From a virus (taxonomy: Duplodnaviria > Caudoviricetes): DNA of 64,000 nucleotides. Each line of letters opens with the position of its first letter. Position 1 is the first letter of the stretch. The notes beneath the pieces were generated by a model. That model was not told where the DNA came from, ran no database searches, and was given only the letters and a program-made list of their open reading frames with translations. The translations under genes and the position numbers were made by a program. Positions 38,148 to 39,269 of this stretch are shown here, one piece after another. Location of the stretch: the IMG/VR virus record IMGVR_UViG_3300043395_004688; one strand, 5' to 3'.

Positions 38148-38554
38148 CAGACAAAAAATCTTACATGCTTCCGGGCAAGCACCTTGGAGCCGACCCAGAG
38201 TTTTTTACTGCTTGGACTCTCTATGACATCAGCCCAACCAGCCCAGAAAATCTCACAAGGCTAATGACCATTATAGCCAATAGAGGACAACCGTTGTTGG
38301 CCGGTATAGAGATTATTGAATCGCAGGATTTAACAGATGGATATTTTGGCACAGAATACAATGGAGTTCACAGAGTCTGTTGCTTAAAGTGGATTGCCAG
38401 TGGCATTGCACAAATGACCGAAGAAACCTTAATGAAAGATGCCGAAGGCATAGTAATGCAACTCAGCAAGCACGATACTGTTAAATTGCCCGGAAAAATT
38501 ATCACATCAGGACCCCAAACAAACACCTTTTTTATTAGGCACGATTCTTTTTAA
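38144..38554 (+). CDS. Hypothetical protein
   Basis: 136-aa ORF, ATGA coupled. Confidence 0.65.
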   Translation: MTDKKSYMLPGKHLGADPEFFTAWTLYDISPTSPENLTRLMTIIANRGQPLLAGIEIIESQDLTDGYFGTEYNGVHRVCCLKWIASGIAQMTEETLMKDAEGIVMQLSKHDTVKLPGKIITSGPQTNTFFIRHDSF

Positions 38555-38692
38555 TTTGGCTAAATATACAGTAAATTTAACATCCGTTATAACAACTCAC
38601 CCTGGCTCCAAAATTTGAACTAAACAATACACTCAAAGCACGATGCTTTGCTGTGTAATTTTACATTGGAAAATAACGGAGTTTACCAGGGC

Positions 38693-38986
38693 ATGGCCGC
38701 TACGAAAATAACGGAAAGTACCAGTCTTGAAATGCACGTTGAACTGTGTGCAGAAAGGTACAATCGCTTAGAAGAAAAATTTGAGCTAGTTGAAACTAGA
38801 CTTGATAATCTTCATAGAGATTTTAATTCATTCAAATCTGAAAATTCCAAAAACATGGCTGATATCAAGACCATGCTATCCAATGCAAAAGATGAAAAGT
38901 TCAAGGTTATGGTAACTGTGACCGGTACAGTAATTGTTAGCTTAATTGGCTTGCTTGGTTACCTTCTAACACATTTGCCAAAATGA
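38693..38986 (+). CDS. Coiled-coil protein with C-terminal transmembrane helix
   Basis: Heptad region then VMVTVTGTVIVSLIGLLGYLL; GGAG RBS supports ATG 38693. Confidence 0.65.
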   Translation: MAATKITESTSLEMHVELCAERYNRLEEKFELVETRLDNLHRDFNSFKSENSKNMADIKTMLSNAKDEKFKVMVTVTGTVIVSLIGLLGYLLTHLPK

Positions 38987-39249
38987 AAATAGTAGTAGAA
39001 GCCAAGATTGTATGGGCCCGTAAAGGCAAAAAAATAGCTAGAAAAGTGCGTTGTACTTCTGGACGACGCAAAGGTAGAGTTGTAAGTTCTGCTAGTAGTT
39101 GCAGTAAAAAAGTTGACATTAAAAAGAGGATGCAGTTTAAGCGTACCAAAGCTAGGATGCGTGGCCGCATTATCATGAAAACCAGAAGAACCAAAAAGTT
39201 TAATCCTTTGAGCAAAAGAGTAACCAGATTAAACAAAAGAAGACGCTAA
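38983..39249 (+). CDS. Small, extremely basic protein
   Basis: 88 aa dominated by K/R; coupled to the previous gene. Confidence 0.7.
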   Translation: MKIVVEAKIVWARKGKKIARKVRCTSGRRKGRVVSSASSCSKKVDIKKRMQFKRTKARMRGRIIMKTRRTKKFNPLSKRVTRLNKRRR

Positions 39250-39269
39250 ATAGATTACTGGAGAACACA

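Follow-up and report, generated by a model that had tools for sequence, protein, structure and literature searches.

A conserved RNA leader that may gate translation of a holin-like gene in uncultured freshwater T4-like phages

A 138-nt intergenic gap (38555 to 38692) in the genome of an uncultured phage separates a 136-aa gene, to which no function was assigned, from a 97-aa gene. On balance, we favor reading the gap as a late promoter followed by a 121-nt cis-acting leader that gates translation of a small, tail-anchored, holin/XhlA-like protein. The elements of the leader are conserved among homologs, its hairpin covaries, and the partners of its long-range pairing co-evolve. An earlier note on this DNA had proposed a cis-regulatory RNA at the site, and indeed, some 50 homologous leaders keep the same order of promoter, arm, box, hairpin, UGG, and AUG; in those leaders, the hairpin covaries and the 5' arm co-evolves with the start region, which is the kind of covariation that the note had called for as a check. 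An Rfam search of 38480 to 38780 (release 15) returned zero matches even at E values up to 10. Judged by sequence comparison, the leader is a new, distinct, and well-conserved RNA motif without a match in Rfam, and it occurs only in T4-like giant phages of freshwater that have not been cultured.

The window, by which we mean the whole 64,000-nt stretch that was analyzed, is the reverse strand of bases 205 to 64204 of a 177.7-kb IMG/VR record estimated to be 53% complete; the leader features described below all lie on the plus strand of the window. Encoded in the window are a tail sheath, a tail tube, a large terminase, a UvsX-like recombinase, a DnaB-like helicase, and a ribonucleotide reductase, and we therefore take the source, an uncultured freshwater phage, to be a large T4-like myovirus. 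A whole-window Rfam scan found one tmRNA and four tRNAs as the only RNA genes. Among 50,697 deposited phage records, a DNA search found no relative and a protein search found no homolog of the 97-aa protein. Every relative was recovered from a viral or metagenome contig, and the contig names suggest a freshwater origin for the majority. Protein-anchored and motif-anchored searches together collected 62 unique upstream regions, and both the promoter and the box are present in 54. Leaders with usable start codons numbered 50 and were grouped into 28 lineages (<85% identity). Column conservation was read from a 44-sequence alignment and hairpin statistics were computed on a MAFFT alignment. The 50-sequence alignment and its covariance model provide the seed for a new RNA family.

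The gap opens with a motif of late promoters. CTAAATA (38560 to 38566) directly follows the stop codon of the upstream 136-aa gene (38552 to 38554), and in the 177.7-kb record, 14 of the 26 copies of CTAAATA are followed within 130 nt by the start of a gene on the same strand. By the same measure, four scrambled motifs reached 5 to 16%, and TAAATAC, which overlaps CTAAATA, reached 53%. The tail sheath gene is among the genes that CTAAATA precedes, and the TAAATA core is invariant or nearly so in the 44 aligned leaders. CTAAATA starting at -12 was reported as a late promoter in the T4-like phage Aeh1 (PMC1524935), and since the motif begins at -12, transcription would start near 38572 and produce a 5' untranslated region of 121 nt. 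That leader is the longest behind any CTAAATA copy in the record, the others being approximately 0 to 60 nt (the top entry of 81 in our table of CTAAATA copies was measured to a TTG at 38648; measured to the ATG at 38693, it is 126). Going by this count, the late mRNAs of these phages appear mostly to carry very short leaders. The TTG is in frame with the 97-aa gene, and it was ruled out as a start codon or as part of an N-terminal extension because the leaders of the close relatives L001 and L104 carry 1-nt indels. No second conserved promoter was found between the box and the hairpin of the homologous leaders. The earlier note had called so long a gap unusual. From approximately 32.9 to 45.3 kb of the window, no other gap exceeds 80 nt, but the record as a whole contains 38 gaps of at least 80 nt. 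Thus, the gap is unusual for the local run of genes and not for the genome.

Downstream of the promoter, the leaders share a common layout. CTAAATA is followed by 26 to 30 nt, often including CCGT, then by the box, an A/U-rich spacer that often holds a third repeat, the hairpin, a U-rich tail, (A/U)UGG(A/G), and AUG. Invariant in the 44 sequences are the promoter core, the CTCA of the box with two further box positions (G46 and C50), one A of the hairpin loop, and the ATG. In the window itself, the elements that had been named from the letters alone all lie where they were placed: TAAATA (38561 to 38566), TCCGTTAT (38583 to 38590), CCCTGG (38600 to 38605), TCCAA (38607 to 38611), TTGGA (38666 to 38670), ATAACGGA (38673 to 38680), GGAG (38678 to 38681), and CCAGGG (38686 to 38691). 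Likewise present is the inner hairpin, with TACAC (38628 to 38632), CAAAGCA (38634 to 38640), a CGA loop (38641 to 38643), TGCTTTG (38644 to 38650), and GTGTA (38653 to 38657). One detail differed, as CCAGGG ends one nucleotide before the ATG (38693) rather than two.

Pairing between the leader and the start region is supported by co-evolution of the two. In the window, the 5' arm UCCGUUAU (38583 to 38590, or +12 to +19 of the predicted transcript) can pair with either of two segments. One is the leader copy of AUAACGGA (38673 to 38681), which overlaps the GGAG Shine-Dalgarno sequence (38678 to 38681), and the other is a second copy in the coding sequence (38708 to 38715, or +16 to +23 of the gene). 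Pairing of the arm with the start region in the window gave a z score of approximately -3 (P = 0.003 to 0.007). For each lineage, we then computed how well the 20 nt preceding the box can pair with positions -25 to +20 of the AUG, keeping the best duplex. The mean energy of a lineage's own duplex was -8.25 kcal/mol, compared to -6.80 ± 0.38 when lineages were permuted, and 0 of 5,000 permutations reached the mean of the real pairs. Measured against shuffled arms, the real arms gave a Stouffer Z of -5.5. Moreover, at least eight distinct arm pairs were found. Neither their sequences nor their exact positions agree, but every one falls at approximately -21 to +13 of the AUG and so covers the first codons, the AUG, or the Shine-Dalgarno sequence. 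They include UCCGUUAU with AUAACGGA in the window, UCCGUUCC with GGAACGGA at +2 to +11 in L029, CCGUAAUC with GAUUACGG at +1 to +9 in L037, ACCCGUGU with CACAUGGGU, and GUCGCUUUACAU with AUGUCAAGCGAU; besides the window, L029, and L037, such pairs occur in L110, L111, L120, L141, and L146. The box itself is also complementary to the start regions beyond what shuffled sequences give (Stouffer Z = -2.9), and a scan along the leader found that complementarity peaks only at the pre-box segment and at the box. We conclude from this comparison that helix 1, as the pairing of arm and start region may be called, is real as a class of pairings.

Occlusion of the start region does not extend to every lineage. 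Significant arm-to-start pairing was absent in approximately 10 of the 28 lineages (L023, L024, L034, L113, L129, L131, L133, L143, and others). L027, L030, L133, and L143 carry, by eye, a local 5' hairpin in the segment between promoter and box instead, and thus start-region occlusion is not universal. In L027, for instance, the hairpin is GGAAGU-AUU-ACUUCC, and in L030, it has a stem of 9 bp. A base-paired 5' end may be the common requirement. We note that the family Shine-Dalgarno element is just UGGA or UGGG, which is weak, whereas other late genes in this genome have GGAG at 7 to 10 nt. The weak start region of the leader family is by design.

Between the paired sides stands the second conserved structure, the hairpin UACAC-U-CAAAGCA / CGA / UGCUUUG-CU-GUGUA (38628 to 38657). 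Compensatory changes on both sides were found at all 12 of its pairs. Across the alignment, 78.4% of the cells in paired columns were paired, compared to 61.9% in shuffled alignments and 33 to 44% when the partner strand was slid, and the covariation score of 0.503 (versus 0.258) was reached by none of 500 shuffles. The loop is an NNGA tetraloop (AUGA, AAGA, UCGA, UAGA, and others) in more than 20 of the 28 lineages and CGA in the window; its A (A38643) is invariant, and the preceding G (G38642) is conserved in at least 90%. The end of the stem lies 20 to 25 nt from the AUG in most lineages and 35 nt from it in the window. A U-rich tail follows, AUUUUACA plus UGG(A/G) (38658 to 38670), in which T101 and G110 are nearly invariant, and it averages 3.6 U per 8 nt against a background of 30%.

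A hairpin and a U-rich tail between a promoter and a gene could instead be a terminator. Transcripts would then mostly end there, at approximately 90 nt, the 97-aa gene would be reached by read-through or antitermination, and the arm and box of the short RNA could act in trans. Indeed, U runs of 5 to 7 give the tail a canonical look in 8 of the 28 lineages (among them L040, L052, L110, and L141), and a conserved, single-stranded 5' part that ends in a terminal hairpin resembles a base-pairing small RNA. The tail of the window, however, has just an interrupted U4, and a terminator scan called no plus-strand site there. U runs are no longer than 3 in 15 of the 28 lineages, and since runs of at least 5 occur in only 8, the family-wide role of the hairpin is not intrinsic termination. 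Moreover, terminators are marked neither by an invariant GA in the loop nor by a near-constant distance to the AUG, and the long-range helices enclose the hairpin without competing with it, such that no mutually exclusive antiterminator was found. In addition, the element is tied to the 97-aa gene: each of the 17 box hits with an upstream TAAATA precedes that gene, and the element never occurs away from it. A trade-off between the strength of the U tract and the pairing of the arm was considered and rejected (Spearman rho = 0.07). We regard termination, with or without a small RNA, as unlikely.

The box lies upstream of the hairpin. In the window, it reads ACTCACCCTGGCTCC (38595 to 38609) and contains the direct repeats ACTCA and GCTCC, 10 nt apart. 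The family shares ACTCAYCYWGGCTCA at a fixed distance from the promoter as one of two to four direct repeats spaced 10 to 12 nt apart; the general form is ACTCAY(Y)CYWGGCTCA, located 34 to 36 nt after TAAATA in most lineages and 30 to 32 nt after it in a few. Frequently, a third repeat (ACTCA, GGCAC, or GGCTC) follows 10 to 12 nt further on. GGCWC occurs at 11.7 per kb in the leaders and 1.5 per kb in the genome, an 8-fold difference. In L178 (about 250-435), L155, L158, L161, and L162, where the 97-aa protein is only 40 to 46% identical, the leaders hold two to four GGCWC copies (four of TTGGCTC in L178) spaced 11 to 13 nt apart behind (A/T)ATAAATA, and they lack a long-range arm but have a strong Shine-Dalgarno sequence, AAGGAG or TGGAG. 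Since these distant relatives carry the repeats without the other features, no part of the leader appears to be older than the repeats.

Copies of the box outside the leader were sought as signs of a regulon or of an antisense partner. The box occurs once in the 177.7-kb record, the covariance model R1 likewise finds one copy, and a paired-repeat scan of the record returned only matches in coding sequence that were judged to be due to chance. With up to two mismatches allowed, no antisense partner of the box was present on either strand of the record. We note three GGWCWC-type repeats spaced 12 nt apart (GGACTC, GGCTCA, and GGCAC, plus strand) at 84780 to 84810 of the record (in window orientation, approximately 28.7 kb before the window start), inside a presumed minus-strand run of genes. 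These are probably coding sequence and chance.

Phased repeats near a promoter might also be a DNA operator, in which a DNA-binding protein of phage or host would bind the repeats (every 10 to 12 bp from +24 onwards) and block or modulate elongation from the late promoter, with the RNA pairings being secondary. Consistent with this, the spacing is approximately one helical turn, the distance to the promoter is fixed at 34 to 36 bp, and up to four copies persist in distant relatives that lack the other features. The sense strand, however, is strongly skewed toward C over G, which suits single-stranded RNA and not a DNA site. In addition, start regions have evolved complementarity to the box, and the adjacent hairpin and arm covary in the manner of RNA. 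The strand skew and the adaptation of start regions to the box favor RNA over DNA as the form that would be recognized, and we consider an operator improbable as the main function. The operator and the RNA gate are not mutually exclusive.

The skew extends over the whole C-rich, G-poor segment from the predicted transcription start to the hairpin (38572 to 38627). Averaged over the 28 lineages, the segment is 26% C and 9% G, a skew found in only 1.2% of random 60-nt windows of the genome. The segment probably is single stranded when it is not paired to the start region, and it may be read as a single-stranded platform with repeated recognition sites. Alternatively, the C-rich, untranslated first 55 nt might load Rho, and transcription would stop inside the gene when the occluded start prevents coupled translation. 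The composition of approximately 55 nt in all 28 lineages, the YC-rich repeats every 10 to 12 nt, and the long leader with its occluded start region all suit Rho-dependent attenuation. Composition by itself, however, is weak evidence, and typical Rho loading sites are longer than the C-rich segment here. Attenuation by Rho seems very unlikely to be the primary mechanism and would supplement, not replace, a translational gate.

The predicted fold of the arms in the window differs from what the earlier note had drawn. Taken as an H-type pseudoknot, the note's model has helix 1 (38583 to 38590 with 38673 to 38680) and helix 2 (38600 to 38605 with 38686 to 38691) present at the same time, with the ribosome-binding site buried. 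Both helices exist in the window and cross topologically, and as the transcript emerges, helix 1 would be the first to form, by way of the leader copy. The 3' partner of helix 2, CCAGGG (38686 to 38691), is lineage specific, however, as it is found only in the window, L001, L002, and L104, four near-identical leaders, and is missing from L003 and all others. L104 has UCAGGG and retains helix 2 by a G-U pair. CCCTGG itself belongs to the invariant box and is kept for a reason other than helix 2. Thus, of the two helices, the first holds as a class of co-evolving pairings and the second only among the closest relatives.

Moreover, the coding sequence offers a different solution. A near-duplicate of 21 nt, 18 of them identical, links the leader (38669 to 38689) to codons 4 to 11 (38704 to 38724), and its likely origin is a short duplication in the past, through which the 5' arm acquired two alternative partners. 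In L104, the leader copy of AUAACGGA has lost 3 nt and the copy in the coding sequence is intact. Once coding sequence was added, full nesting was predicted by the minimum-energy fold and the centroid of the window as well as by a consensus over six relatives: the arm is predicted to pair with 38708 to 38715, the box CCCUGGCUCC with GGAG...CCAGGG, and UCA with a UGG in the start-codon region, with the hairpin inside. The elements of the window can therefore nest without a pseudoknot, since the 5' arm has a second partner in the coding sequence, and the nested fold encloses the GGAG, the AUG, and +16 to +23. It uses the same arms plus CUCC/GGAG and makes more pairs than the pseudoknot, in which a 5-nt linker (38681 to 38685) would have to cross an 8-bp helix, a tight fit by our geometric judgment. 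We hold the pseudoknot to be very improbable. The 156-nt stretch folds with a z score of -2.4 (2 of 200 shuffles fold equally well), and the 174-nt whole fold reaches just -1.2 against shuffles. Because the latter value is modest, the case for the leader rests on comparative evidence and not on thermodynamics. With regard to a riboswitch, one local hairpin alone is conserved across the family, the box and repeats form no junction in any fold, and the sequences point to no ligand.

The 97-aa gene (38693 to 38986) is predicted to encode an N-terminal coiled coil and a C-terminal hydrophobic segment of the tail-anchored kind, in agreement with the coiled-coil membrane protein that had been read from the sequence at the outset. 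A relation to lysis, suggested at the same time, finds a weak holin/XhlA-like signal in profile matches to phrog_689 ("holin"; E = 4.6e-5) and phrog_1193 (E = 0.004), but Pfam XhlA gave no match at E values up to 0.01, and the neighboring genes are virion or structural genes. The atlas neighbors of the protein are unnamed viral clusters, and it is well conserved, its mean column identity being 69%. The product is possibly lysis related as a holin/XhlA-like protein, which we treat as a lead only.

Downstream of the 97-aa gene, an 88-aa gene (38983 to 39249, plus strand) overlaps its stop codon by an ATG (ATGA). The 88-aa protein is extremely basic, approximately 40% lysine plus arginine, and neither Pfam nor PHROG profiles match it. 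Some leader-carrying lineages have the gene; in others, a 207-aa virion gene comes directly. A role for the basic protein as the factor that binds the leader was rejected, as it is missing from many leader-carrying lineages. The 207-aa gene matches a virion structural protein (phrog_14154), and a second CTAAATA (39246 to 39252, plus strand), which overlaps the end of the 88-aa gene, lies 17 nt before the ATG of the 207-aa gene. A late promoter thus stands on either side of the short unit made up of the 97-aa and 88-aa genes.

How might the gate work? The first 40 nt of the leader, that is, the arm (38583 to 38590) and the box (38595 to 38609), would pair with the start of the gene, from the Shine-Dalgarno sequence through the start codon to the codons that come first. 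With the start region paired, we propose that ribosomes could not load freely and that synthesis of a potentially membrane-damaging protein would be limited or delayed. Between the paired sides would lie a recognition module, made up of the phased ACTCA/GGCWC repeats in a G-poor stretch and the GA-loop hairpin, and some factor acting on that module would free the start region. One candidate for release is an RNA-binding protein on the box, as Com on the mom mRNA of phage Mu. Another is an endonucleolytic cut in the A/U-rich spacer, after which both blocking segments would be gone and the hairpin would remain as a protective 5' end. More tentatively, and with well under even confidence, we suggest that the leader represents a novel class of riboregulator, in which an invariant receptor of repeats and GA-loop hairpin is recognized by a phage or host factor, protein or nuclease, that makes an inert late mRNA translatable and times the holin-like protein. 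If so, T4-like giant phages would possess, in this leader, a lysis timer based on RNA.

Several other candidates were dismissed. The box resembles the T7-like promoter sequence TAATACGACTCAC, but it is present as a single copy in 177.7 kb, and identity over a 9-mer occurs in one lineage only. For a sigma-54 promoter (TGGCAC-N5-TTGC), the -12 element is not conserved, and a small upstream open reading frame from an AUG in the hairpin loop exists in fewer than half of the lineages and has no conserved frame. A kissing contact between loop GAG and box CUC would involve 4 to 6 nt in some lineages and none in the window, and no covariation was seen by eye. Complementarity of the box to a presumed 8-mer of 16S rRNA (GGGUGAGU) was set aside.

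Close parallels are found in phage T4, in which no riboswitch or regulatory RNA had been characterized according to a 2010 review (PMC3014915). The start regions of T4 e (lysozyme), soc, 49, and I-TevI are kept inaccessible within an RNA helix (PMC3014915). As with these genes, the gene here belongs to a T4-like phage, would be late or lysis related, and would have its Shine-Dalgarno sequence and/or AUG buried by an upstream complement against untimely translation. In those T4 genes, however, the late promoter lies inside the structure, so that late transcripts are made without the 5' arm, whereas in the present leader, CTAAATA is placed 17 nt upstream of the arm and the late transcript would carry both sides. 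Moreover, the T4 structures are local hairpins, whereas the arms here are 80 to 125 nt apart and enclose a conserved box and hairpin. Thus, of the features of a T4-type gate, sequestration of the start region was found, in predicted folds and by co-evolution, and a promoter within or after the 5' arm was not. The operator of T4 gene 32 combines a 5' pseudoknot with repeated UUAA(A) motifs that reach the ribosome-binding site (PMC3014915). The leader is similar in being long and structured, and in joining a nucleating structure to an unstructured stretch that holds short repeats ahead of the start region. The gene 32 operator, however, represses through cooperative protein binding and autoregulates a DNA-binding protein, whereas here a simple hairpin is the structure, the repeats are C rich (ACUCA/GGCWC), and the membrane product is unlikely to bind RNA.

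Other systems share parts of the arrangement. In phage Mu, the late and potentially harmful gene mom has an inhibitory stem over its start region, which the small protein Com opens. The leader resembles mom in that a late, potentially harmful gene has an inhibitory stem and an adjacent conserved RNA element, but the candidate module here, phased repeats plus a GA-loop hairpin, is not a Com target and has no sequence relationship to it. The mRNAs of the type I toxins hok and tisB have a long-range fold-back, a standby site, and activating processing. Like them, the 97-aa gene encodes a small, hydrophobic, potentially toxic protein behind a long 5' leader with long-range pairing, and the single-stranded region upstream could be a standby site. 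Unlike them, it has no antisense RNA partner on either strand of the 177.7-kb record and lies in a late phage operon rather than in a toxin-antitoxin locus. In phage lambda, PR'-tR' yields the 6S RNA, Q provides antitermination, and nut consists of boxA and boxB. There too, a late promoter and a leader with a linear box and a hairpin are followed by lysis-type genes; in contrast, the loops here are not GNRA-like pentaloops but NNGA tetraloops (in the window, CGA), the window has a weak U tract, and lambda boxA (CGCUCUUUA-like; pattern GCTCWTTWA) had no match in the window. That phages can time their lysis genes by sequestering start regions is already known. What this leader combines is a co-evolving long-range pairing, an invariant repeat box, and a covarying, fixed-loop hairpin, and should some factor act on the last two, it would reveal how these phages control a membrane protein posttranscriptionally.
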